A stretch of 64,000 nt of DNA, from assembly GCA_965248695.1 (NCBI GenBank), contig CBDFKD010000002.1, positions 5,161,691 through 5,225,690 of the forward strand, given 5' to 3'. This document shows, piece after piece, positions 1,835 through 59,930 of this stretch (position 1 is its first letter; each line of letters opens with the position of its first letter). Position numbers and translations under genes: made by a program. Origin of the DNA: Acidobacteriota bacterium. Its GTDB lineage: Bacteria; Acidobacteriota; UBA890; WLXD01. A model generated the notes under the pieces. It saw only the letters and a program-made list of their open reading frames with translations, was not told where the DNA came from and ran no database searches.

Positions 1835-3238
1835 GAGATATAACCGGAAGTTGTGGATGGGAGGAAAAAGAAAGGCGGCGTAACCTTCGCTGGGATCATC
1901 AACAACCAGCAGCCGGCTGTGGAGGCCGGGAAGGAGACGCCACTCGTGCTCAAGATTATCGGTGGATCGGACGCGGAGGAAGGACAGCTGACACTGGACG
2001 TCGATGAGCTCGCCCGGCAGGGCGCGCTGCAGATGCTGGCAACAGCACTGGAGTGGGAGGTTCAGGAGTATATCCAGAGCCACGCCGGGCAACTGGATGA
2101 AGCCGGCCGTCGGCAAGTGGTACGCAACGGTCGGGCTCGCGCACGCAAGATCACGTTGGGGTGCGGGACGGTGCAAGTAGCCGCGCCACGGGTCAACGAC
2201 AAGCGGCTCGACGAGCAGGGACTGAGGCAGCGGTTCAGCAGTCGGATCCTGCCGCCCTACATGCGGCGCTCGCCGAAGGTGGCGGAGGTGCTGCCGGTGC
2301 TGTACCTGCGGGGCCTGTCGACGGGCGACTTCAAGGAGGCGCTGCCGATCTTACTGGGACAGGAAGCCAGCGGGCTGTCGGCATCGGCGATCTGCCGGCT
2401 GACGAACGCCTGGAGCACGGAGTACGAGGCATTCCGGAAGCTGGATCTGTCCACCAAGCAGTACGTATACGTGTGGGCGGACGGTGTGCACTTCAACATT
2501 CGACTCGAGGATGATCGGCTGTGCACGCTGGTGATCCTGGGCGTTTTGCCGGACGGAACCAAGGAGCTCATCGCGGTCGAGGACGGGTATCGAGAGAGCA
2601 CCGAGAGCTGGGCGTTCGTGCTCCGGGAGCTGAAGCGTCGAGGCATGCGGGCGCCGCTCGTGGCAGTGGGTGATGGGGCGCTGGGGTTCTGGGCGGCGGT
2701 GCGGGATGTATGGCCCCAGACTCGAGAGCAACGATGCTGGGTGCATCGGCTTGGCAACGTGCTCGACAAGCTACCGAGGCGGCTGCAGGCCAAAGCCAAG
2801 CGCGCGCTGCACGAGATCATCGGTGCGCCAACGCGCGAGGATGCTCAGGAGGGCATGGCGCGGTTCGCAGCCGACTACGGCGCCAAGTACTCCAAGGCCG
2901 TGGCGTCGTTGCAACGCGACTCCGACAAGCTGCTGACGTTCTACGACTTCCCCGCCGACCACTGGGTTCATCTGCGCACGGCCAACCCGATCGAGTCGGC
3001 GTTCGCCACCGTACGCCTGAGACAACGCGTCACCAAGGGCGCCGGCTCACGCACCAAGGCGCTGACGATGGCATTCAAGCTCCTGGAGATGGCACAGCAA
3101 CGATGGCGCCGCATCAACGCTCCTCACCTCACTGCCCTCGTACTCGAGGGCGCCACATTCGTCGATGGAGTTCACCTGATCGCTAGCGAAGACGCCGCCT
3201 GAACAAATCCACCGATCCACAACATTTGCAAATAACTC
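1835..3238 (+). mobile_element. IS256-family insertion sequence (about 1.4 kb) flanked by 9-bp direct repeat gtgtcgact
   Basis: Imperfect about 30-bp terminal inverted repeats (gagatataaccggaagttgtggatgg vs rc gagttatttgcaaatgttgtggatcgg, 22/31 identical); 9-bp TSD at 1826-1834 and 3239-3247; single mutator-type transposase inside. Confidence 0.8.
1853..3202 (+). CDS. IS256-family (mutator-type) transposase
   Basis: 449 aa; strong resemblance to IS256 transposases (…YVYVWADGVHFNIRLEDDR…CWVHRLGNVLDKLP…ANPIESAFATVRLR…). Confidence 0.9.
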   Translation: MDGRKKKGGVTFAGIINNQQPAVEAGKETPLVLKIIGGSDAEEGQLTLDVDELARQGALQMLATALEWEVQEYIQSHAGQLDEAGRRQVVRNGRARARKITLGCGTVQVAAPRVNDKRLDEQGLRQRFSSRILPPYMRRSPKVAEVLPVLYLRGLSTGDFKEALPILLGQEASGLSASAICRLTNAWSTEYEAFRKLDLSTKQYVYVWADGVHFNIRLEDDRLCTLVILGVLPDGTKELIAVEDGYRESTESWAFVLRELKRRGMRAPLVAVGDGALGFWAAVRDVWPQTREQRCWVHRLGNVLDKLPRRLQAKAKRALHEIIGAPTREDAQEGMARFAADYGAKYSKAVASLQRDSDKLLTFYDFPADHWVHLRTANPIESAFATVRLRQRVTKGAGSRTKALTMAFKLLEMAQQRWRRINAPHLTALVLEGATFVDGVHLIASEDAA

Positions 3239-33487: not shown

Positions 33488-33786
33488 GCAGGGTTCTAAG
33501 AGTTGACGGGATATCGGTAGCCGTTGAGGAGGTGCCTCGTATCCATATAACCGAGGAGGCTCACGGCGAGTTTATTAGCCAGCCGACGCCGCACATTCGG
33601 CTAGCAGAGGACTTGCCGGACGGTGAATGGAAGCACTATGTGCTGCTGCATGAGTGGGTGCATGCGGTGTTATTCGTGCGGGGGCTGAGCTCGGTTCTCG
33701 AAGAGCATCAAGAACTCGAAGAGTTGGTATGCAACGCCATTGCATCCGAGATGGTCAAGGGGGGGTTATTTCCCGATGCCACGTAG
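33484..33786 (+). CDS. Small HExxH-motif protein (possible minimal metallopeptidase)
   Basis: LLHEWVHAV motif; 100 aa; overlaps portal stop. Confidence 0.45.
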   Translation: MSRVLRVDGISVAVEEVPRIHITEEAHGEFISQPTPHIRLAEDLPDGEWKHYVLLHEWVHAVLFVRGLSSVLEEHQELEELVCNAIASEMVKGGLFPDAT

Positions 33787-34054
33787 AGAGCCTGCGTATC
33801 GGGAGCTTCATGCGGCCGCCGACAGGATCGAGCCGCGCCTGGAGCGGGCGTTCGTACGGGCCATGGAGCGCTTGCGGGATCAGGTGTCGATCAACGAGCT
33901 AGCGCTAGCGCTGTCGGCCGGCGATGCGAAGGGGGCGCTGCGGCGGGTGCCGGTGGGTGAGGTTCGGGAGGCGTTGGAGGGAGTGGGAGACAGCGTGCAG
34001 GAGGCGTTCATGCGCGGTGGAAGACTCGGGGCGAAGCGAATCAATGAGCTCTAG
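33776..34054 (+). CDS. Hypothetical phage protein
   Basis: Shares 40-bp direct repeat (ERAFVRAMERLR) with next gene. Confidence 0.3.
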   Translation: MPRREPAYRELHAAADRIEPRLERAFVRAMERLRDQVSINELALALSAGDAKGALRRVPVGEVREALEGVGDSVQEAFMRGGRLGAKRINEL

Positions 34055-34055
34055 G

Positions 34056-34370
34056 ATGGAGCGGGCGTTCGTACGGGCCATGGAGCGCTTGCGGGAGGGT
34101 CTGTACGACGAGGCTGGTGCCGAGAGCTTGATGGCGCCTGTTCTGGTGGAGTGGCACGACTCGTACGGCTGTTCTGCCAGTTGGCAGCCATTGGATATGA
34201 TCGAGCCTGCGGCTCTCGTGTACCGGTCTGTAGGGTGGTTGGTACACGAAGACGATCAGTGTCTCGTGGTTGTGCCCCACCTGACGGACCAGACTGAGGG
34301 AGTTGCCCGCCAGGGGTGCGGCGACATGACGATTCCACGCTGCGCGGTGCTACGCGCGTCCAACGCCTAA
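34056..34370 (+). CDS. Hypothetical phage protein
   Basis: Starts MERAFVRAMERLREG; 104 aa. Confidence 0.3.
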   Translation: MERAFVRAMERLREGLYDEAGAESLMAPVLVEWHDSYGCSASWQPLDMIEPAALVYRSVGWLVHEDDQCLVVVPHLTDQTEGVARQGCGDMTIPRCAVLRASNA

Positions 34371-34384
34371 CGAGCCGGTAAGCG

Positions 34385-34966
34385 ATGGCCACGACCAGCA
34401 CTTCCTTCCGGTTCGACGCCACGCTCCCGGCAGCACAGCGCGCCGCTGCCCGCCATGCGGCACGGCTCGTCAAGGGAGTCTCAGAGGAGACCCGTCGGGG
34501 TATTCGTGCAGCCATCGTGCGCGCCATCCGCGAGGGGCAGCCTCCGTTCGAGGCGGCACGCGCGATCCAACCGATGATCGGACTGAACGCGCAACAGGTC
34601 CAAGCGGCGCTGAATTACCGCGCCGAGCTGATCGACCAGGGGCTGACGCTGCAGTTTGTCGACCGCAAGGTGGACCGCTACGTGCAGAAGAAGCTTCGGG
34701 AGCGAGCCCGAACGATCGCCCGCACCGAGATCATGAACGCGCTCAATGCGGGGCAGGAAGAATCCTGGCGTCAGGCGCAGCGGGCGGGGCTGTTGCCCAA
34801 GGGGCAGAAGAAAGTATGGATCGTCACGCCGGATGATCGGCTCTGCCCGATTTGTGAGCCGATGCGTGACGCCGTGGCGGAGGTTGGTAAGCCGTTTCCG
34901 ATTCCGGGGCCACCGGCGCATCCTCGGTGCCGGTGCGCGGTGGGGATCGCTACAGACGGCCGCTAG
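34385..34966 (+). CDS. Phage head morphogenesis protein (SPP1 gp7 / Mu F-like)
   Basis: C-terminal HPRCRC motif typical of this family. Confidence 0.7.
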   Translation: MATTSTSFRFDATLPAAQRAAARHAARLVKGVSEETRRGIRAAIVRAIREGQPPFEAARAIQPMIGLNAQQVQAALNYRAELIDQGLTLQFVDRKVDRYVQKKLRERARTIARTEIMNALNAGQEESWRQAQRAGLLPKGQKKVWIVTPDDRLCPICEPMRDAVAEVGKPFPIPGPPAHPRCRCAVGIATDGR

Positions 34967-35214
34967 AGCACGTTAATCGCGTGTAGCACGCAGTCTCCCC
35001 TGATACCACCAGATCGGGGAGGAGAAACGATCTTCGCCACAGCAGCAATCTCCATAGCGAAGACATAGCTATAGAAGAACAAAGTTAGTCACTTTTGCGC
35101 AAGGGGGGTGTTGACACCGCAACCAGGATCGTCGTATTGATTCAAGGAGACGGATTCAGACGCAACGGACCGTAGCCGGGGGGCCACGGTCGGTCGCGCT
35201 GACAGGGTGGGAGC

Positions 35215-35976
35215 ATGCAAGTCGTCGTTGAAGATCTGGGTGCCGTTGCCGAAGCACTTCGCGACGAGTACGTGGAGCGTGACGGTAAGTACGTACTGAA
35301 GCTCGAAGGCGATGTGCCGGGGATGGTGGTGGCCTCGGAGCTGGAGGAGCAGAAGAAGGCCACGGCGCATTTCCGGGATAGCAACGTTGGTCTGAACAGC
35401 AAGATCGGTGATTTGACCACGAGGCTCGATGAGATCTCCGGTCTTGAGGACAAGTACACGAGCGCCGTCACGGAGCTTGAGACGTTGAAGAAGACGGCGC
35501 CCAAGAAGGACGCGGAGATGCAAGCGATCCAGGCGCAGCTAGAGTCATTGGCAAAAAAGCTCGATGAGTCCAATGCGCGCGAGGTGGCGGCACGGCAGCA
35601 AGCGGCACGGAAGGATCTTGAGTCGCAGCTGCGAACCGTGGGATCCAAGCTCGGAGTACGTGACGAGGCGTGGGAAGACTTTTTGTCTCGTGGAACAGCG
35701 GTCTTCCAGCTGACCGAAGAGGACGGCAAGGTCGTTGCCAAGCGTGGCGAGGAGCCGTTGTTTTCCGAAATCAACCCGGCGCTGCCGCTCACGATGCAAG
35801 AGTGGGGCGAGAGGCTACAGCGACAAGCGGCGCATCTGTTCAAGGAATCCACCGGAGGTGGAGCACGCCCGAGCGATACGAGCGGTTCCACAACGGGCAT
35901 GGCACGTATGGTTTCGGAAGATCAGTTCGGGGGGAGCTTGGAGGACATTGCGGCCGGCAAGGCCGTAGTACAGTAG
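35215..35976 (+). CDS. Phage scaffolding protein
   Basis: Coiled-coil-rich 253 aa immediately upstream of coat gene. Confidence 0.6.
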   Translation: MQVVVEDLGAVAEALRDEYVERDGKYVLKLEGDVPGMVVASELEEQKKATAHFRDSNVGLNSKIGDLTTRLDEISGLEDKYTSAVTELETLKKTAPKKDAEMQAIQAQLESLAKKLDESNAREVAARQQAARKDLESQLRTVGSKLGVRDEAWEDFLSRGTAVFQLTEEDGKVVAKRGEEPLFSEINPALPLTMQEWGERLQRQAAHLFKESTGGGARPSDTSGSTTGMARMVSEDQFGGSLEDIAAGKAVVQ

Positions 35977-35990
35977 AGGACAGCAGTACC

Positions 35991-36280
35991 GAGCGTGACG
36001 TAGCACGCCATTAGGCTACGGCGGCTAACAGGGTCTCTTTAGATCCAGGGGGCCGCGCCCCGGTGGGGACGAATCGGAAGTAACCGAGCGTGACGCGGTG
36101 CGGTACGAAGCCGCGGCGGCTGGTGGATCTTGAAGGATCCAAGGGCCGTGCCCCGGTGGGGACGAATTCGGTAGTACTAAGACATATTCTGAGAGCGTGA
36201 CGTGGCACGCCATTAGGTCACGGCGGCTAACAGGGTCTCTTCAGATCCAGGGGGCCGCGCCCCGGTGGGGACGAATCCGC
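35991..36280. repeat. Three tandem about 100-bp repeat units, each with two hairpins, between scaffold and coat genes
   Basis: Units start at 35991, 36087, 36193; each ends ccagggggccgcgccccggtggggacgaat; units 1 and 3 near-identical, unit 2 diverged but hairpin-preserving. Confidence 0.8.
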
Positions 36281-36309
36281 AACTTCTTTTGTGGAGGAGT
36301 GCCCCGACA

Positions 36310-37425
36310 GTGGCCAATACCAACACCACCACGCATATCGTTGACCGTCTGTTGGCACAGGGTCTGTTGGCTCTGCGCGAGATGGTGGTCATGCCGCGGT
36401 TCGTCAACCGCGCCTACGAAAACGTTCCGGGCGATCAGTACTCGACGATCGATGTACCGATCCCCTCGGCGATCGCCGCAACCGCGGTAACGCCTTCCAA
36501 CACGCCGCCCGACGATGCCGGGATCGCGCCGACGAAGGTGTCGCTCGTACTGGATCAGTGGTACGAGGCGCCGTTTTTCCTCAACGACAAGGAAATGCTG
36601 GAGGTGCAGTCGGGAACGATCCCGATGCAAGCCTCCGAGGCGATCAAGGCGCTGGCGAACAACATCGACAACGCCATCCTTGCCAAGTACAAGGACATCT
36701 ACGGGTACGCCGGCACGGCGGGCACCACGCCGTTTACGAGCGACCTGTCGGCGTTCGTGAACGCCCGCAAGGTGCTCAACGAACAGCTCGCGCCACTGGA
36801 TCCACGCTTTTGCGTGATCGATCCGGATGCAGAGGCGAACGCGCTGAACCTGCGCGCCTTCCAGGACGCCAGTTACCGGGGTGACCGTCAGGGTATCTTG
36901 CGTGGTGAGATCGGCGAGAAGCTCGGCTCCATGTGGGCGATGGACCAGAACGTTCCAACGCATACCACGGGCGGCGGCTCAGGCTGGCTGGTGAACCAGT
37001 CGGACCATGTGGTGGGCAACGGAACCGTGACGATCGATACCGGCTCGGGCGATCCCGCCGAGGGCGACATCTTCACGGTGGCCGGTGACACGCAGACCTA
37101 CGTCGTGGAGGCCTACGGGAGCAACGTCATCACCTACGCACCGGCGTCGAAGGTTGCCTGGGCCGACGATGCGGCGCTGACGTTCAAGGGCAGCCACACG
37201 GTGAACCTGGCGTTTCACCGTGACGCCTTCGCGTTGGCCATGCGGCCGTTCCAGGGAGCCGACCCGATGGGAGTCGGGACGTTCCGCGCGGCGGTCGACC
37301 CGGTATCGGGCTTGGCGCTGCGACTGGAAGTGTCGCGTCAGCACAAGAGGACTCGCTTCTCCTACGACTCCCTCTACGGTGTGCAGACGGTTCGCCCGGA
37401 GCTGGCGGTGCGCGTCGCAGGCTAA
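36310..37425 (+). CDS. Major capsid protein (P22 coat-like)
   Basis: GTG start with GGAGGAG RBS; P22-coat-like N-terminal pattern (…VVMPRFVNRAYENVPGDQYSTIDVPIP…). Confidence 0.75.
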   Translation: MANTNTTTHIVDRLLAQGLLALREMVVMPRFVNRAYENVPGDQYSTIDVPIPSAIAATAVTPSNTPPDDAGIAPTKVSLVLDQWYEAPFFLNDKEMLEVQSGTIPMQASEAIKALANNIDNAILAKYKDIYGYAGTAGTTPFTSDLSAFVNARKVLNEQLAPLDPRFCVIDPDAEANALNLRAFQDASYRGDRQGILRGEIGEKLGSMWAMDQNVPTHTTGGGSGWLVNQSDHVVGNGTVTIDTGSGDPAEGDIFTVAGDTQTYVVEAYGSNVITYAPASKVAWADDAALTFKGSHTVNLAFHRDAFALAMRPFQGADPMGVGTFRAAVDPVSGLALRLEVSRQHKRTRFSYDSLYGVQTVRPELAVRVAG

Positions 37426-37447
37426 TCGGCTGGGTCCACAATGATGA

Positions 37448-37484
37448 GGCTCGGTCGCGCTGGCTGCGTGCTCGCGACCGAGCC
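37448..37484 (+). terminator. Strong 12-bp-stem hairpin directly after coat gene (terminator/attenuator-like, no U tract)
   Basis: ggctcggtcgcg…cgcgaccgagcc perfect inverted repeat. Confidence 0.5.
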
Positions 37485-37506
37485 CACACCCCCTAGGTGA
37501 CAAAGC

Positions 37507-37683
37507 GATGGCTGCAATACCGACTCAGAAAGTCCGTCGCAAAAGCGATGGGGCGGAGTGCGTGATCAATCGAGAAGAGTTCAACGAACACGACTACGAG
37601 GAGATAGCCAAGCCGAAGGCTAGAGGCGGTGGCAAGCCGAAGTCCAAGGCGCAGCCTACGAAAAGGCGCAAGGGGAACTGATG
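37507..37683 (+). CDS. Small basic protein (58 aa)
   Basis: ORF below 60-aa track cutoff; ATGA overlap with next gene. Confidence 0.3.
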
Positions 37684-55666: not shown

Positions 55667-55904
55667 GTCGAAGCCCCTCAGCTTCGCGCGGCGGGAAAGA
55701 TAGCACGCGAGAAGATCGCCGGCACTTCAGCTGCCTGCCAGCAGATGCGGCGCCAGGCATGGCACAGGTGCTCGCGGCCAAAAAGCGGTCTTGATGAGCA
55801 ACCAAAAGAGCGGCCGGAGGAGGTATCGTAGCGAACGTACCGTTCCGACCGCTCTTTCGTTCTTCGTGTACCGGGTGGTGGTGGGCTGGTGCCGGCTCCG
55901 GGCT

Positions 55905-55946
55905 TCCTATCTACGGGTCACGGGTTCGATCCCCGCCACCTCCACA
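55905..55946 (+). other. tRNA 3'-end-like fragment (T-arm GGGTTCGATCCCC + acceptor-like CACCTCCA); candidate att-site remnant
   Basis: T-loop consensus and acceptor 3' strand present but no foldable 5' half upstream. Confidence 0.35.
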
Positions 55947-56029
55947 CCGTTACCACCACACTAAACCTCCCGCGCACGTAGTCGTCAACGCTGATCGGCC
56001 ACTCGGGTACAAAATAAGGCTGGAGCATT

Positions 56030-56305
56030 TCATTTGCCGGCTTCGGGGGCAACGAAGATCTCCTTCGCATCGTGCGATGACAGCGTGATTTCCCGGTCCT
56101 CGTTATCGCCGATGTAACCAACGTCTGCGAGCGTCACAGTTCTTCCAACATCTTCCGGTGCTACCACGATGCTCAGAGGCAGTTCGGAGGATCTCGGAAA
56201 CATGTACATTCGCGTTAGGAAGCCGCGATTCACAGCCTCAGCCAACTCAGCGGCAGCAACGTCTTTCGTGATGCCTTCGATGCTCGCGTATTCAGCTACG
56301 TCCAA
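56030..56305 (-). CDS. Hypothetical protein (91 aa)
   Basis: ORF with upstream hairpin. Confidence 0.4.
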   Translation of the reverse strand: MDVAEYASIEGITKDVAAAELAEAVNRGFLTRMYMFPRSSELPLSIVVAPEDVGRTVTLADVGYIGDNEDREITLSSHDAKEIFVAPEAGK

Positions 56306-56355
56306 ATAGCGCCCCCCCGTTCGACGGTATACAGTCTCGATCTAAATAGCACCTA

Positions 56356-56407
56356 GCCCGAGGGTAGAGAGACAATCCGATCAGAGGAAGGTGCTCTCTA
56401 CCCTCGG
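56356..56407. promoter_or_regulatory. Perfect 15-bp-stem hairpin (cccgagggtagagag / ctctctaccctcggg)
   Basis: Directly read inverted repeat between two minus-strand genes. Confidence 0.5.
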
Positions 56408-56561
56408 GGGCTTGGATCTGGTCGCATCAAGAGCCTCAGCGGCCGGCGGATCAGGTTCGGGCGGCCCGCCGTGCTCATCGGTGCCGTGCGGAGCCCTGGG
56501 CGTGGATGGGAGCCGGGTGTCGCCGTCGGGATCGCGGTTACCTGGTAGGGAGGCGTGTGAT

Positions 56562-56774
56562 TTACCCCAACACCACTAGAGTATCGATCGTTGTCCCTAG
56601 CGCTCTAGCAATGCGGGACAGCGCGGCTGTAGAGCCGGGCTTGAGCCCACGTTCGATCTCAGACAGATATCCTGTAGCGATGCCCGTCTTGGCGGTGAGG
56701 TCGCGCACTGTGATGCCGTAGTGGGCGCGGAATGCAACGATTGGGCGTTCACCCTCCATAATGGCAAGTGCCAC
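56562..56774 (-). CDS. Short XRE-family HTH protein (Cro/CI-like)
   Basis: ITVRDLTAKTGIATGYLSEIERG. Confidence 0.7.
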   Translation of the reverse strand: MALAIMEGERPIVAFRAHYGITVRDLTAKTGIATGYLSEIERGLKPGSTAALSRIARALGTTIDTLVVLG

Positions 56775-56859
56775 CTCGTGCGGGATACGGCTCCCATCAT
56801 CTGCCTCGAGTGCGGCTAACCGATCCTCAAGTTCTTCCTTGCTGGCAACAAGGGCATCG

Positions 56860-56877
56860 TGAATTTATTGCAATTCA
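56860..56877. promoter_or_regulatory. Operator-like palindrome TGAATTtattgcAATTCA in AT-rich region upstream of HTH gene
   Basis: Directly read; AT-rich 56840-56890. Confidence 0.4.
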
Positions 56878-57032
56878 TAATTTCTGGATAATTTGCAGTT
56901 GCTTCTGCAGTTCACCTGTACTGAACGAAGACGAAGTGATCGACCAGTACGGCATCGCGCCCGAGCGGGAACACCAGAAAGGCCGCCTGCGGCTGATCAG
57001 CTTACGAGAGGCGTCTGCCTGAGAAGAAAGGT

Positions 57033-57119
57033 GCCATCGTGGCGAAATCGGCAAACGCACCCGGTTTGCGACCGGGCGGCTGTCTAGGCCTTGTGGGTTC
57101 GAGTCCCACCGATGGCACC
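57033..57119 (+). tRNA. Class-II (long variable arm) tRNA-like gene, Leu-type scaffold, non-canonical anticodon loop UUUGCGA
   Basis: Acceptor GCCATCG/CGATGGC, UG at 8-9, 3-bp D stem GCG/CGC with AAATCGGCAAA loop, anticodon stem CCCGG/CCGGG, 16-nt variable arm, T arm GTGGG-TTCGAGT-CCCAC, discriminator A. Confidence 0.65.
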
Positions 57120-57639
57120 TAAAGTACCTCCAGCAGCATCGAACCGTAGCCGCCGTGCCGCCACGATGGCGAATGTTACTTGTAACAGTATGGCGCAACG
57201 TGACACAGACCGTAAGGAACCGTCGAAGCCCGGCCCTGATGCCGAGCGGCTGAAGATCGACGACGATCCCGAGGAAGCCCTACAGCGGCTCCTGAAGAAC
57301 GCCCCCGCGCCAGAAGAACCGCGACCGCCCCGTCGACCGCGTTGACTGACAACAGCCGGTATTCAGCGACCGTCGCCACCCTCAGCAGATTTCAACAGGT
57401 ACATACTCCCGAATACCTTTGAACAAAATATCGGGTGGCCCTCGTTTCTTCGATAGGCCACCCGAAGAAGTCCCGTAGCTCAGGGACACCCGTCTCACGT
57501 GCCCCCTAGGTTAGCACAAGCGAAGCGCTCCACAGCGCCGGTTTTGAGATAACGAACCAAAGGTGGTCGTCGTGAATGCCGGTCGTGTCGTGAAAGCTGT
57601 CGCCGGCCTCAACAATCACCCCGCTGCACCAGCTGATCG

Positions 57640-57735
57640 GATTATGTCGACCTTCTTGCTGAACGCGTTTGTTAGGCGAGTAAATCTGCGCATGTTCATG
57701 CGCATGGTCAGGTTCTGCCGCTCGATTCGCCGGAG
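57640..57735 (-). pseudogene. C-terminal fragment of an IS1-family transposase (…ERQNLTMRMNMRRFTRLTNAFSKK…)
   Basis: Matches conserved C-terminal motif of the intact IS1-family transposase at 59026..59895 but diverged in sequence. Confidence 0.5.
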
Positions 57736-57892
57736 AGCCGATGAGCTAGAAGAACTTCTCATCGAAAGCGTCGATGACCCATCCGACCTCGACCACGAGC
57801 GCGTCAAGGCTCTCGAATACAGCCAAGCCGGTATCAGGCCCCATACCTTCGCCGAAGACTACGCGCGCGACCACAAGCGTATCCATTCGGCA
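57727..57892. repeat. 165-bp segment duplicated (near-)identically at 62548-62712
   Basis: Directly read identity. Confidence 0.9.
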
Positions 57893-58098
57893 ACTAATGC
57901 AGATCCGAATCCGAAAATGAGAGCAAACCGCAACAGCGATCGCGTCGGCTGCGAGAATGCCCCCGGCAAACGGGTGCTGTCCTAATTTGAACTGCTCGAA
58001 GTTTATGAGTGATTTACAACGATTTATATCATGCAGGATGGACTCTCCCTTAACTTACTTTATACTTTCACTTAAATCGTATTGACGGGAGAGAGACT

Positions 58099-58701
58099 AT
58101 GGTTCTAGGCTCTGACAGGTTGTGGGAAACGGCGTTTAGGGGACTCATGGACCCGAAATTGCTTGTCGAAAGGTACCAGTACTTATCCAGGAAGCGACGC
58201 GAGATCGAGGGGAAGATGGCGGCCCTGGCGGAAATGCAGCAAGTCTTAGGGGTGGAATTGGACGACGTAAACGACCAGCGCGCCATGCTTTGGCTTCAGC
58301 TCGATCGACAGGCTCTGCTTGATCGTGACGATATCCGCGAGTATCTCGGTGACGCCACGAAGCCGCCTGGCATCAAGCGCGTGCGTGCCGAACAGGTAGA
58401 CCGAGACTTGATGAGATACCTGGCCAATCAAGATGGTCGGGAATGGCGCGTCCGGGACATCCTCACGCACAAGAACGCCATGCGGCTCGGCCATATGTCT
58501 GATAGCGGTGTTCGGGCGGCGATTAACCGCGCCATCGAGCGCGGCGAACTGGAGAAGACTGGCGGATGGGGGATCGTTCGCGTATCGGACCGAGGTAAGG
58601 AGTCTTACGGTCTTGATGCCGAGGCTGACTTGGAAGAACAAGACATGGACCTGGCCGAGAAAGAGGCCATGGAAAAGGAGAAGGCTAGGCCACCGTTCTG
58701 A
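58099..58701 (+). CDS. Hypothetical protein (200 aa) in low-GC island
   Basis: AT-rich upstream region 57990-58098; GGGAGAGAG RBS. Confidence 0.45.
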   Translation: MVLGSDRLWETAFRGLMDPKLLVERYQYLSRKRREIEGKMAALAEMQQVLGVELDDVNDQRAMLWLQLDRQALLDRDDIREYLGDATKPPGIKRVRAEQVDRDLMRYLANQDGREWRVRDILTHKNAMRLGHMSDSGVRAAINRAIERGELEKTGGWGIVRVSDRGKESYGLDAEADLEEQDMDLAEKEAMEKEKARPPF

Positions 58702-59004
58702 ACAAAGAGCCCGCCGCTGCGGTAACAGCGACGGGCTCCGACAACTTGTGATGGCCTCGTGGACAACAGACGGTCAAGTCGCGGGACTGGAAATCCCGAG
58801 ATCCCGGTTCGACACCGGGCGGGGCCTCACCTTTCTCCCCTGACAGCAAGGAGGGTCAGATGATAGCGCGAGCACCACCGTCAGCGCATCCCTGAACGCC
58901 GAAGGGGCCGGGGTGCGTCTCACGATGCTCCCCGGCCACCTATAAGTCGCCCGGCCCGCTGCACGAACAGCGAACCGGGCTAGATCCAAGACGCGGGCAT
59001 AGGC

Positions 59005-59930
59005 CGCATCGGACCCTCACAGCCATTGTGGTCCTGCCCGCCATCCGGAGCAAGACCGATGGCGAACGTACTGGCCCCCGAGAAGAAGCGCATGATCATC
59101 GCCGCCCTGGTGGAGGGCAACAGCATCCGCAGCATCGAGCGCATGACCGGCTGTCACCGAGACACGATCTGCCGGCTGCTCGTGCGGGTAGGTGAAGGCT
59201 GCGAAGCCATGATGCGCGAGCGGTTCACCGGTTTGCGCCTTGACGATCTCCAGGTCGATGAAATCTGGACCTACGTCCAGAAGAAGCAGGCCACGGTGAT
59301 CAGGTCCGGCAAGCGCGTGAATCCCAAGCATGGTGATCAATGGGTTTTCGTCGCGCTCGATGCCGAAACGAAGTTGGTGCCGCATTGGATCGTCGGCAAG
59401 CGCGACGGCTACAACTCCTACCAGATGATCTCGGAGCTGGCCCGTAGGATCGACGGGCCGTTCCAACTGACCACGGACGCTTTCGCTGGCTACAAGGCCG
59501 CTCTCGGAGTCGTGGCGGCTCGTGGTATCGACTACGCACAGCAGACCAAGAGCTATACGGCCACGAATCCATCCTTCGGACGTTACTCACCACCAAGGGT
59601 CAGCCACTGCACAACTCAGGTTGTGGCCGGAGATCCAGATCCGGAGGCGATCTCCACGAGCTACGTCGAGCGTCAGAACCTGACCATGCGGATGAGTATG
59701 CGACGGTTCACCCGGCTGACGAACGGCTTCTCAAAGTCGCTGCGCAACCTGGAAGCCGCTGTGTCGCTGCACTTCGCCTGGTACAACTTCGTGCGGATTC
59801 ACGACAGCCTGCGGAGCACGCCGGCCGTTGTGGCCGAAGTAGTTAGTACCGAGTTGGCGATGGACGACCTGCTGGCCTTCGAGGCGGGCTACTAATGCTC
59901 GGTGATTTCCACAGGATATCCACAACGGGT
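59005..59930 (+). mobile_element. IS1-family insertion sequence (boundaries approximate)
   Basis: Imperfect terminal inverted repeats around cattgtggtcctg / caggatatccacaacgg; single fused InsAB-like ORF. Confidence 0.45.
59026..59895 (+). CDS. IS1-family transposase (single-ORF InsA-InsB type)
   Basis: N-terminal HTH; C-terminal YVERQNLTMRMSMRRFTRLTNGFSKSLRNLEAAVSLHFAWYNF matches IS1 InsB C-terminus. Confidence 0.85.
   Translation: MWSCPPSGARPMANVLAPEKKRMIIAALVEGNSIRSIERMTGCHRDTICRLLVRVGEGCEAMMRERFTGLRLDDLQVDEIWTYVQKKQATVIRSGKRVNPKHGDQWVFVALDAETKLVPHWIVGKRDGYNSYQMISELARRIDGPFQLTTDAFAGYKAALGVVAARGIDYAQQTKSYTATNPSFGRYSPPRVSHCTTQVVAGDPDPEAISTSYVERQNLTMRMSMRRFTRLTNGFSKSLRNLEAAVSLHFAWYNFVRIHDSLRSTPAVVAEVVSTELAMDDLLAFEAGY

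Follow-up and report, generated by a model that had tools for sequence, protein, structure and literature searches.

A triplicated RNA module before a P22-type coat gene as a candidate leader gating coat translation

The gap between the head scaffolding gene and the coat gene of this prophage is 333 nt long and is filled by three units of about 90 nt, each of which is a copy of a structured RNA module found at a fixed position before the coat genes of related phages. The last hairpin of the module (hp3) has a loop and a 3′ arm complementary to the end of the Shine-Dalgarno (SD) sequence and the spacer of the coat ribosome-binding site, and this complementarity covaries between loci. We take the apparent competition between hp3 and a helix hiding the ribosome-binding site, together with its covariation, to be the main new finding. 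On balance we lean towards reading the array as a new cis-regulatory leader of the coat mRNA which gates translation, possibly with processing. The effect on translation, its trigger and the role of the extra copies are the inferred part of this reading.

In what follows, the window means the whole 64-kb stretch of DNA that was analysed. The genes on the two sides of the array are those named in the original prediction, with a scaffolding gene upstream and a P22-type coat gene downstream (Table 1). The coat gene most likely starts at the GTG at 36310; its N-terminus, (M)ANTNTT, lines up with the starts of relatives, whose coat proteins are 42-68% identical and come from collections of viruses, genomes and metagenomes. 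The prophage resembles siphoviruses; it has a tape-measure gene but no giant polymerase gene. No match to positions 35000-37500 was found among GenBank phages with blastn, and exact look-ups of the scaffold, coat and portal proteins, made to find the same prophage elsewhere, found none of them on record.

Three tandem direct repeats stand immediately upstream of the coat gene, as predicted, with start-to-start spacings of 95 and 107 nt. Over 85 nt, units 1 and 3 share 95% identity, and unit 2 is about 72-75% identical to both. The 18-mer GCCCCGGTGGGGACGAAT occurs three times in the window, always in the array, against 0.07 copies expected, and a count of three was reached in 0 of 100 shuffles. 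Tandem Repeats Finder did not detect the array because the copies have diverged and carry indels. No further copy of the unit was found in the window, either with the 18-mer allowing 3 mismatches or with a covariance model of the module (R1), which gave no match better than E = 2 outside the array. It had been considered that the repeats might be a recent tandem duplication without conservation. The close match between units 1 and 3 does point to a recent duplication, but the unit as such is ancient and conserved.

Each unit contains three hairpins, and not two as first proposed: a variable hp1, a long hp2, and hp3 (CCCC-GGU-GGGG), which is followed by ACGAAU. In RNAfold predictions units 1 and 2 also have an outer stem (P1) which closes a four-way junction. 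The proposal that one hairpin diverges in sequence with its pairing kept was confirmed by compensatory changes in hp1, the arms of which are CGUAGC/GCUACG in unit 1, CGCGGU/GCCGCG in unit 2 and CGUGGC/GUCACG in unit 3; for the last of these the register given originally, CGUGAC/GUCACG, is a possible alternative. The GC hairpin that had been described as conserved (GGGGCCGCGCCCC) can pair in the window but is not retained in relatives, where the overlapping CCCC-GGU-GGGG hairpin is conserved. A fourth hairpin, hp4, the 3′ strand of which takes in the first GGA of the SD, sits between module and ribosome-binding site and stacks on the sequestering helix described below. At the hp4 site the relatives have hairpins of different sequence, namely UUCACA/UGUGAA (L074; relatives carry L numbers), UUCAAG/CUUGAA (L060), UUCACG/CGUGAA (L026) and UCACAA/UUGUGA (L175).

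Known RNA classes were not recognised in this region. ARAGORN found no tRNA within the units, none of the 4227 families of Rfam 15 gave a match at E <= 10 in 35500-36800, and when the window and 14 related loci were compared with Rfam the gathering score was reached by tRNAs alone. Hammerhead, HDV-like and twister ribozymes were rejected since their core motifs are absent (by eye) and they gave no Rfam match. There is no promoter-like site and no sigma-70-like hexamer in 35000-37600. A sigma-54-like sequence in hp1 of unit 3, TGGCACG-N4-TAGG, was also rejected: the GC of its −12 element is missing, and units 1 and 2 do not retain the motif. Terminator-like sites near the array are not in excess (3 observed, 2.1 expected), and the sole terminator-scan match in the region, at 36265-36280, is a weak 5-pair stem within chance expectation. 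What follows hp3 is ACGAAU, with A-rich tails in relatives, instead of a run of U, so that hp3 does not have the form of an intrinsic terminator.

Table 1. Positions, in window coordinates, of the genes, repeat units and predicted helices at the scaffold-coat junction. Paired strands are separated by a colon.
Feature	Position	Strand	Details
Head scaffolding protein gene	35215-35976	+	phrog_206, E 3.2e-19; stop TAG 35974-35976
Unit 1, predicted closed four-way junction	35988-36078	+	RNAfold -41.5 kcal/mol, z -2.1; R1 85.6 bits
Unit 1 outer stem P1	35989-35992 and 35994-35996 : 36069-36071 and 36074-36077	+	CCGA and CGU : ACG and UCGG
Unit 1 hp1	35999-36004:36015-36020	+	
Unit 1 hp2	outer stem 36021-36026:36051-36056; inner stem 36031-36036:36041-36046	+	
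Unit 1 hp3	36058-36061:36065-36068	+	loop GGU; tail ACGAAU 36069-36074
Unit 2, predicted closed four-way junction	36082-36173	+	most diverged unit; RNAfold -44.0 kcal/mol, z -2.7; R1 83.8 bits
Unit 2 hp1	36094-36099:36110-36115	+	three compensatory positions relative to unit 1
Unit 2 hp2	outer stem 36116-36121:36144-36149; inner stem 36124-36130:36135-36141	+	
Unit 2 hp3	36151-36154:36158-36161	+	tail 36162-36167; P1 3′ strand UUCGGU 36167-36172
Unit 3, terminal copy, without P1 closure	36190-36276	+	R1 85.3 bits; 95% identical to unit 1
Unit 3 hp1	36201-36206:36217-36222	+	
Unit 3 hp2	outer stem 36223-36228:36253-36258; inner stem 36233-36238:36243-36248	+	
Unit 3 hp3	36260-36263:36267-36270	+	loop GGU 36264-36266; tail ACGAAU 36271-36276
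hp4, between module and ribosome-binding site	36276-36295	+	UCCGCAA/UUGUGGA; pair probabilities 0.75-1.0
Sequestering (Alt) helix	36267-36305	+	GGGGAC 36267-36272 : G36299, U36300, CCCC 36302-36305 (last SD G and spacer)
Alt helix extension	36259-36261:36312-36314	+	hp3 5′ arm with last start-codon base and first two bases of codon 2
Coat ribosome-binding site	36293-36312	+	SD GGAGGAG 36293-36299, spacer, GTG 36310-36312; read from sequence
Major capsid (coat) protein gene, P22 coat family	36310-37425	+	PF11651, E 1.9e-19

The covariance model R1 was seeded with the three units of the window and with L073, L074 and L060. Beyond its seeds it matched L026 three times (E 1e-10 to 1e-12) and L075 once (7e-9), and further non-seed matches, all with E < 0.01, were obtained in L065, L058, L001, L018, L003, L062, L061 and L005. 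The best 22 matches (E <= 0.035, seeds included) all lie directly upstream of a coat start on the coding strand. The scenario in which related phages lack the repeat, raised together with the original prediction, thus did not hold: the same module stands before their coat genes, with a structure supported by covariation, and the core of the original proposal, a functional structured RNA rather than a chance repeat, is borne out. Among 19 sequences, in an alignment fitted to the model, 94.3% of cells pair as against 36-61% with the partners slid. Changes on both sides were seen in 15 of the 16 pairs (same model-fitted alignment), and none of 500 shuffles equalled the observed values. G.U cells outnumber A.C cells by 21 to 4, which favours an RNA of the coat strand. 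Conservation of unpaired bases is modest (a 5′ GCGUG, an RCGY at the start of the hp1 loop, and a CRAA in the tail). Most members allow a pseudoknot in which the 5′ flank GCGU pairs with the hp1 loop ACGC, and L074 allows a swapped version, but it is indistinguishable from chance (P = 0.75) because all versions are GCG-rich.

Of 87 non-redundant relatives, 37 have a CC-N3-GG hairpin whose stem counts 5 pairs or more and whose centre falls 25-75 nt ahead of the coat start, against a background of 2.5% per interval scanned (binomial P ~6e-36). The loops of these hairpins are strongly biased to NGN closed by C-G, and the commonest loop is GGU. When an HNH endonuclease gene lies between scaffold and coat (L005-L008), the element stays beside the coat gene. 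Some relatives have a strong GC hairpin just 3′ of the scaffold stop, before the module. An exact scan of IMG/VR with the 18-mer gave no match; a looser DNA pattern gave 61, of which 57 were apparently chance matches in unrelated contexts, and this pattern scan yielded an independent member, L175. The element occurs in prophages of little-studied soil and sediment bacteria (Vicinamibacterales, Ca. Marinacidobacterales) and on viral and metagenome contigs, including ocean ones (TARA); the relatives are assigned to several phyla or are known from metagenomes alone. Most of them carry a single copy. Tandem arrays were found in at least three lineages, that of the window included, and internal units have a closing stem of their own in two independent arrays. 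L026 and L027, sister prophage copies in one genome, have three units and two units respectively, two of the units being 99% identical; among the L026 units hp1 shows a compensatory change (UGCGAC/GUCGCA and UGCGGC/GCCGCA).

The sequestering helix of Table 1, which pairs the 3′ arm and tail of hp3 with the ribosome-binding site, and hp3 itself are mutually exclusive. In equilibrium predictions for the window the Alt helix has a pair probability of 0.92-0.93 and hp3 one of 0.001, and hp3 can be forced at a cost of 3.6-4.5 kcal/mol. Of 20 leaders, 17 disfavour hp3 by about 3 kcal/mol or more, the gap ranging from 3 to 16 kcal/mol. Because a MAFFT alignment of the expression platform lost the register of the helices, complementarity was tested by permutation and not by column counts. 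The hp3 loop and 3′ arm were compared with the 26 nt around the ribosome-binding site in matched and mismatched loci. With hairpins chosen by a rule that requires a stem, the duplex energy of matched loci gave a permutation P of 5e-5, while the control with the 5′ arm gave 0.23. In an ungapped 9-nt test on hairpins chosen by the same rule, 8 of 9 was reached by 37% of matched and 13% of mismatched combinations (P = 5e-5, control 0.17). Perfect 9/9 pairings were found with differing sequences, namely GGUGGGCCC:GGGCCCACC in L062, GGAGUGGCC:GGCCAUUUC in L075, CGAGGGGCC:GGUCUCUCG in L026 and UGAGGGGCC:GGUCCCUCG in L060, and the same complementarity is seen in L175. With 6 pairs, a bulge and -10 kcal/mol, the Alt helix of the window stays below 8 of 9 and is weaker than those of the best relatives, and about half of the members, for example L073, L154 and L058, show no clear complementarity. 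The bases of the loop covary with those of the spacer: GGU goes with ACC, GGA with UCC or UUC, and CGA with UCG. Since the complementarity of hp3 follows the SD end and the spacer in this way, hp3 is likely to compete with the helix that hides the ribosome-binding site. This is the best-supported function and points to control of coat translation; it lay beyond the reach of the original prediction, the interpretation of which is on the whole partly supported.

We therefore suggest the following model. Each unit represents a single instance of a conserved module, about 85-90 nt long (hp1-hp2-hp3-CGAAU tail), within the 5′ leader of the mRNA for the coat protein. The gene-proximal copy would be joined to the expression platform. 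With the loop and 3′ arm of hp3 paired to its 5′ arm the ribosome-binding site would be open; with the same strand paired to the last SD G or Gs and the spacer, in a helix stacked on hp4, it would be closed, and the closed form would be the thermodynamic ground state. Given such a ground state, opening would have to proceed through the order of co-transcriptional folding and ribosome loading, through cleavage, or through a bound factor. In the first case hp3 has the advantage of being made first; in the second the cut would fall in the conserved GAA between hp3 and hp4. The two upstream units are extra copies, predicted to close themselves into four-way junctions and keeping their structure through compensatory changes; what they contribute is probably stability or further binding sites. 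For the virion gene with the highest expression a closed ribosome-binding site is unexpected, and the switch does not explain the function of the two upstream copies.

Other explanations bear on the same observations. A rather unlikely one is that hp1-hp2-hp3 is an orphan sensor domain, riboswitch-like or protein-sensing, which would decide when the coat ribosome-binding site opens. Unassembled scaffold or coat protein is a possible signal, and the tandem copies would make the response cooperative or, set free as stable RNAs, act as decoys against a host factor. A simple ligand-driven switch is unlikely since hp3 is disfavoured by 3-16 kcal/mol. This large gap suits an irreversible step more than a reversible switch, as would be expected if the array were an intercistronic processing or stability element, an unlikely explanation. 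An RNase III-like or RNase E-like host enzyme would cut the closed hairpin or the single-stranded GAAU, after which hp3 would refold and protect the 3′ end of the scaffold mRNA, hp4 would protect the 5′ end of the coat mRNA, and the ribosome-binding site would be freed. All the conserved parts would then be explained together: both arms of hp3, the closing helix, hp4 and the GAA. The closed hairpin, with about 18-19 pairs in the window and L175 (fewer in L062 and L045) and an internal loop GAA/GGA, resembles in outline the RNase III sites of phage T7, where an internal loop interrupts about 20 pairs, and internal units also carry AA or GAA at a bulge between two helices. Nevertheless, the helices are short for a classical RNase III substrate, hp4 is absent in L062 and L045, GAAUC and GAAUUC match the preference of RNase E loosely, and the element tracks the coat gene, not the scaffold gene, where the two are separated. 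Cleavage is also one way to open the proposed gate, and to that extent processing and the translational leader overlap.

The number of copies may have no meaning: the last unit would be functional, and the two upstream copies would be recent products of slippage or recombination without a role. The near-identity of units 1 and 3 and the single copy of most relatives agree with this, as does the difference between L026 and L027, which indicates that copy number changes quickly. But unit 2 is about 25% diverged and has kept all its helices, with three compensatory changes in hp1 and conservative changes in hp2; hp1 compensation among the L026 units, the closing stems of internal units in two arrays and the recurrence of arrays in at least three lineages also make a neutral triplication improbable. 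The same amplification would suit a protein-binding array or decoy RNA, in which C-GGN-G triloops (hp3, and the tip of hp2 in many relatives) bind a phage or host protein, free scaffold or coat protein being candidates, and more copies give more capacity, or in which closed internal units, compact and very stable in their predicted folds, are released to titrate a host factor. Several leaders do have two to four similar triloops (four with GGA in L011 and L012, three with GGU in L100 and L110, two each in L026, L074 and L062), and the NGN bias with C-G closure is in line with a binder. We consider it quite improbable all the same: the identity of the loop is explained, with no need for a protein, by the covariation of its bases with the spacer ahead of the start codon, the search for a partner gave no candidate, a small basic ORF 3′ of the coat gene being present with and without the element and uncorrelated with it, and GGU rather than GGA is the commonest loop, a poor fit to CsrA-type binding, which requires GGA. 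A role at the DNA level (promoter or operator, cruciform, hairpin promoter, recombination or packaging site) is very improbable. Short inverted repeats do stand at a set distance from the gene start, and the promoters of phage N4 virion RNA polymerase are hairpins with three-base loops; yet stems that vary freely with their pairing kept argue against a double-stranded sequence-specific site, the excess of G.U over A.C favours a single strand of coding sense, and this siphovirus-like prophage has neither sigma-70-like hexamers nor a giant polymerase gene. A put-like processive antiterminator RNA, letting polymerase pass late-operon terminators, had been proposed originally, beside RNase processing sites, which agree with the data, and a protein-binding array. 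The array is a multi-hairpin structured RNA of roughly the right size, and there is the GC hairpin after the scaffold stop in some relatives, but its fixed position relative to the coat start codon and its covariation with the ribosome-binding site indicate translation and not transcription. With no promoter-like site upstream, no excess of terminators and no Rfam match, the idea found no support and is hardly credible.

The dosage of capsid protein in tailed phages is commonly put down to promoters and to the strength of ribosome-binding sites. An RNA gate on the coat gene, if true, would be an extra and testable layer of control. In this family a structure of about 90 nt, compact and strongly covarying, comes with natural variants of one, two and three copies and lends itself to a clear mutational design in which three strands compete for one; the element could mark this coat lineage and serve as a portable part for translational control. 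If the trigger were a protein or small molecule it would represent a new class of sensor, and if the sensor reading were true, an RNA-encoded checkpoint on capsid production would extend across a large clade of uncultivated temperate phages.

The proposed leader resembles translational riboswitches and riboregulators in that two exclusive helices share a strand, one of them hides SD, spacer and start codon, and a folded domain lies upstream. It differs from them in having no Rfam match, in junctions without ligand-type conservation and in a closed form favoured by 3-16 kcal/mol, more than ligand binding usually supplies. In the maturation-protein gene leader of the RNA phage MS2, translation is controlled by delayed RNA folding. 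There, too, an upstream complement pairs with the SD region, an early local hairpin delays this pairing, and ribosomes load on fresh transcripts; but virus type, gene and sequence are different, the gene here encodes the most abundant virion protein and that of MS2 a one-copy protein, and the kinetic likeness is an analogy. The mom mRNA of phage Mu, which is activated by the Com protein, likewise comes from a phage late gene with a stem-closed start region, and in mom the activator acts on an adjacent upstream hairpin; in contrast, no Com-like zinc-finger gene was found beside the element, and there is no sequence similarity. RNase III cuts intercistronic sites of phage T7 (R1.1 and others) and the lambda N leader. 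The T7 sites share with the array the hairpin of about 20 pairs with an internal loop between late genes, and a cut, which can switch on the gene downstream, would leave a 3′ hairpin as protection, whereas the helices here are shorter, interrupted and known as predictions, and are tied to one gene and not to several junctions. The put RNA of HK022 is also a phage RNA that works in cis, with several hairpins and a similar size. It is found immediately 3′ of early promoters and its target is RNA polymerase, while our element stands at a set distance from a start codon, changes in concert with the ribosome-binding site and has no sequence similarity to put.

Comparative genomics has yielded 10,006 structured RNA candidates, and five upstream of a major capsid family (PHA00201) are mentioned (PMC10690425). 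Candidates of this kind before phage structural genes, like GP20-a and GP20-b, share with our element a covarying structure that belongs to a virion-gene leader in uncultivated phages. Neither GP20-a nor GP20-b (Rfam) matches the array, and the capsid family named with those candidates, PHA00201, differs from PF11651 by family identifier. RNA anti-CRISPRs (Racr) are solitary CRISPR-repeat mimics of the host's own repeat, located downstream of a promoter of their own (PMC10651486). Racr and the array are both intergenic in prophages, sometimes repeated, and combine a short GC hairpin with an A-rich tail; the hairpin here, unlike Racr, holds its place ahead of the coat gene in many hosts, and it covaries with the ribosome-binding site. 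We noticed no CRISPR array in the window. REP/BIME repeats, which stabilise upstream mRNA and are dispersed in many copies in the host genome, are similar as tandem GC-rich hairpins between two genes of an operon. In contrast to them, the present element travels with the coat gene in phages assigned to many sources or sampled from them, and it has no dispersed copies in the window, 27 kb of which are host genes.

Between the head scaffolding gene and the P22-family coat gene lie three direct repeat units, with start spacings of 95 and 107 nt. Units 1 and 3 share 95% identity over 85 nt, and unit 2 is about 72–75% identical to both. The 18-mer GCCCCGGTGGGGACGAAT has three copies in the gap and none elsewhere in the 64 kb (0.07 expected), so the triplicated repeat originally predicted ahead of the capsid gene is present; Tandem Repeats Finder does not report the array. 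When folded as coding-strand RNA, all three units gave one common architecture, as predicted, but with three hairpins per unit (hp1, hp2 and hp3) instead of two. hp1 is a 6-bp hairpin whose stem differs by unit (CGUAGC/GCUACG, CGCGGU/GCCGCG and CGUGGC/GUCACG in units 1, 2 and 3) and still pairs, in keeping with the variable hairpin described originally. Directly after it comes the long hairpin hp2, in which an internal loop lies between the outer stem GCGGCU/GGCCGY and the inner stem GGRUC/GAUCC; a single G separates hp2 from hp3 (CCCC-GGU-GGGG), which is followed by the tail ACGAAU. The "conserved GC hairpin" of the original prediction, GGGGCCGCGCCCC, proved to be an alternative pairing that draws on the hp2 3' strand and the hp3 5' arm, and relatives favour hp3. 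An outer stem (CCGAG..CGU with ACG-AA-UCGG) closes units 1 and 2 into a four-way junction, with folding energies of -41.5 kcal/mol (z -2.1) and -44.0 kcal/mol (z -2.7) respectively. The opposite strand folds more poorly in all three units, with a similar z-score for unit 2.

Positions in the window of the coat leader and neighbouring features
Feature	Position	Remarks
Siphovirus-like prophage	roughly 27.2-55.7 kb	~28 kb
MuF-like N-terminal ORF	33740-34054	phrog_3517
Direct repeat, perfect, 40 nt	33840-33879, 34057-34096	217 nt apart, within MuF-like head-morphogenesis region
Further ORF	33924-34370	between the two MuF-like ORFs
MuF-like C-terminal ORF	34385-34966	PF04233
Head scaffolding gene	35215-35976	phrog_206; upstream of gap
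Scaffold-coat intergenic gap	35977-36309	333 nt
Unit 1	35988-36078	+ strand
Unit 2	36082-36173	+ strand
Unit 3	36190-36276	+ strand
Terminator-like site	36265-36280	weak; hp3 3' arm + hp4 5' strand
Closing pairs	36267-36272:36299-36305	probability 0.92-0.93
hp4	36276-36295	
Coat SD	36293-36299	GGAGGAG
P22-family coat gene	36310 (likely start, GTG)	PF11651; downstream of gap
Small ORF	37508-37681	57 aa, right after coat
tRNA genes Arg-CCT, Ala-TGC, Ser-GGA	within 55874-58828	just beyond prophage end
Mutator-family transposase (PF00872, E 1e-58) and IS-type DDE transposase (weak matches)	1853-3202, 59026-59895	flank region

The three hairpins form a conserved RNA domain tied to coat genes; a search of related phages, as the original prediction suggested, found the module ahead of their coat genes, with covariation. 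Loci were chosen by coat proteins 42-68% identical, from IMG/VR (L001-L023), species genomes (L024-L050) and metagenomes (L051-L130); among the species-genome loci are prophages of Vicinamibacterales and Ca. Marinacidobacterales (Acidobacteriota), Gemmatimonadota, Desulfovibrionaceae and others. About 45 nt ahead of the coat start codon, many relatives carry a short GC hairpin that has a triloop and is followed by an A-rich tail. A CC-N3-GG hairpin (at least 5 pairs) centred 25-75 nt before the coat start was present in 37 of 87 non-redundant loci, a few being coding-sequence coincidences at the scaffold C-terminus, against a background of 2.5% per such window (P ~6e-36); its loops are mainly GGU, GGA, CGA or GGG. 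Many relatives, including low-G+C, Desulfovibrionaceae and Gemmatimonadota ones, have short gaps without the element.

A covariance model of hp1, the hp2 outer stem and hp3, seeded with the three window units and L073, L074 and L060, recovered the non-seed loci L026 (three tandem copies, E 1e-10 to 1e-12) and L075 (7e-9), eight others at E <0.01 (L065, L058, L001, L018, L003, L062, L061 and L005), and L067 and L024 at E ~0.03. All of the best 22 matches (E up to 0.035, seeds included) lie directly upstream of a coat start on the coding strand, and nothing in the remainder of the 64-kb window scored better than E = 2. In a 19-sequence alignment, 94.3% of cells are standard pairs, compared with 36-61% after shifting the partners by 1-3 columns; fitting of the alignment to the model somewhat inflates these figures, but the contrast is still large. 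Two-sided changes occur in 15 of 16 pairs, and none of 500 shuffles attained the observed values. G.U cells outnumber A.C cells (21 vs 4), which speaks for coat-strand RNA rather than for the opposite strand or a cruciform in DNA. Of 61 hits from a pattern scan of IMG/VR, four scored highly with the model (L142, the L074 contig; L148; L154; L175). Each of these is 39-53 nt ahead of a coat ORF that begins (M)ANTNT/ANTLT/ANSNT, and the remaining 57, in unrelated contexts, are apparently chance.

One strand of the last hairpin also takes part in a helix over the SD, spacer and start codon. Many members show complementarity between a segment made of the hp3 loop, the 3' arm and 1-2 tail bases and one made of the last G(s) of the SD and the spacer; it mostly ends 1-4 nt ahead of the start codon (L062, GGUGGGCCC:GGGCCCACC; L001, GGUGGGCC:GGCCUACC; L075, GGAGUGGCC:GGCCAUUUC; L065, GGAGUGGUC:GGUCAUUCC; L026, CGAGGGGCC:GGUCUCUCG; L060, UGAGGGGCC:GGUCCCUCG; L045, GGUGGGGUU:AGCCCCACC; L005, GGUGUGGCC:GGCCACACU); about half of the members have no such complementarity. 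Bases of the hp3 loop covary with those immediately 5' of the start codon. Each locus was set against its own RBS and against RBSs from other loci in two permutation tests. Mean duplex energy was -10.3 kcal/mol for matched and -8.3 for mismatched pairs (P = 5e-5; 5'-arm control, P = 0.23), and ungapped 9-nt complementarity of at least 8/9 was found in 37% vs 13% (P = 5e-5; control, 0.17). Between hp3 and the SD lies a small hairpin, hp4, variable in sequence with its pairing preserved (UUCACA/UGUGAA, UUCAAG/CUUGAA, UUCACG/CGUGAA and UCACAA/UUGUGA; UCCGCAA/UUGUGGA in the window). In the predicted closed form, hp4 stacks on the closing helix (hp3 3' arm and tail paired with SD end and spacer) across a GAA/GGA internal loop, which would explain the conservation of the CGAA tail. 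The window's closing helix is modest (6 pairs and a bulge); the hp3 5' arm is predicted to pair with the start-codon region (P = 0.62), hp3 itself has P = 0.001, and forcing hp3 costs 3.6-4.5 kcal/mol. Of 20 leaders examined, 17 disfavour hp3 by about 3 kcal/mol or more, the gap reaching 16 kcal/mol; for L175 and L062 the minimum-energy fold is the closed hairpin (z -4.5 and -5.1).

From these comparisons and predicted folds we think, with moderate confidence, that the leader acts as a cis-acting translational gate on the coat gene. It would share with translational riboregulators the hiding and release of the SD. Such a gate would matter as a clear, testable switch, widely spread in little-studied phages and recurrently amplified in tandem. 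Against it, the coat is the most abundant virion protein, yet its RBS is closed in the favoured fold. As the ground state is closed, opening probably needs folding order, cleavage or a bound factor. Transcription would reach hp3 about 30 nt ahead of its competitor, and ribosomes might then keep the site open. The MS2 maturation gene is controlled by delayed RNA folding, and opening of the coat leader by folding order would be analogous. Cleavage in the GAA between hp3 and hp4 would give each new end a protective hairpin, hp3 at the 3' end and hp4 at the 5' end, and may be seen as a more specific form of the processing role proposed originally; that the leader is cut there is also a separate explanation, compatible with the gate, which we regard as rather unlikely. 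A bound factor is the third candidate for opening the RBS. No effector gene was found, and the small basic ORF after the coat is conserved with or without the element. A pseudoknot of the 5' flank with the hp1 loop is possible but not significant (P = 0.75).

The leader is not in any Rfam family: Rfam 15 gave zero matches in the region at E up to 10, and only tRNAs in the window and 14 related loci. ARAGORN called no tRNA within the units, and GenBank phages contain no similar DNA. The put-like antiterminator suggested originally is not supported, given the wrong position, the lack of a promoter/terminator context and the coupling to the RBS; an intrinsic terminator was ruled out by the absence of a U run. 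A consensus scan marked one weak terminator-like site, GUGGG-GACGAA-UCCGC then AACUUCUUUU; such sites are at chance level (3 observed vs 2.1 expected). A REP-type repeat was rejected on finding no dispersed copies within the 64 kb searched. A CRISPR-repeat mimic is unlikely, because the element keeps a constant place before coat genes across hosts, whereas Racrs lie downstream of a promoter of their own. Large phage surveys contain thousands of unnamed structured-RNA candidates, some of them upstream of another capsid family (PMC10690425).

The module is most often single in relatives. In the window only unit 3 contacts the RBS, units 1 and 2 being closed by their own outer stem, and prophages of Ca. 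Marinacidobacterales have the same array design. L026 carries three units of 143 nt, two of which are 99% identical, and its sister copy in the same genome, L027, has two; copy number therefore changes quickly. An internal L026 unit also folds as a four-way junction, with another outer stem (GAGUAG/UUUACU) closing it. Four related coat regions (L026, L027, L030 and L034), with leader arrays of 2 or 3 units, lie on one 5.87-Mb contig of a Ca. Marinacidobacterales MAG. The Vicinamibacterales prophages L024 and L028 have 2-3 tandem structured units, then a final GGA/GGG-loop hairpin. At least three lineages thus have arrays. Internal copies that have diverged retain their helices via compensatory changes, which argues against pure decay, though it falls short of proof for a role.

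The scaffold and coat genes belong to a prophage that also encodes DNA methylases, a portal (DUF4055), a MuF-like protein, connectors, a major tail protein, a tape measure and an HTH regulator; it adjoins tRNA-Arg in a bacterial chromosome of 64% G+C. The small ORF, which matches nothing in Pfam or PHROG, has a VINxxEF/DFD-like motif and a Lys/Arg-rich tail; many relatives encode a similar small protein after the coat. In L005-L008, an HNH-endonuclease-like ORF (CxxC...HVDHVVP...CxxCN) lies directly upstream of the RNA element in the usual place of the scaffold gene, and the element still adjoins the coat gene. In L002, L003, L018 and L051 the stretch between scaffold stop and module contains a strong 9-12-bp GC-rich hairpin that lacks a U run (in L018, CCCGCGGCC-AGUGUU-GGCCGCGGG), and the IMG/VR contig L003 has a seven-tRNA-gene cluster upstream of the head genes (13-1910). 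In the window, the MuF-like gene is apparently split, and together with the 40-nt repeat this may reflect a duplication or insertion disrupting or remodelling the gene. Beyond the prophage, the tRNA-Ala call is unusually long for its type (87 nt), the tRNA-Ser call has only 76 nt, and G+C falls to about 58-60% from 56 kb onward.
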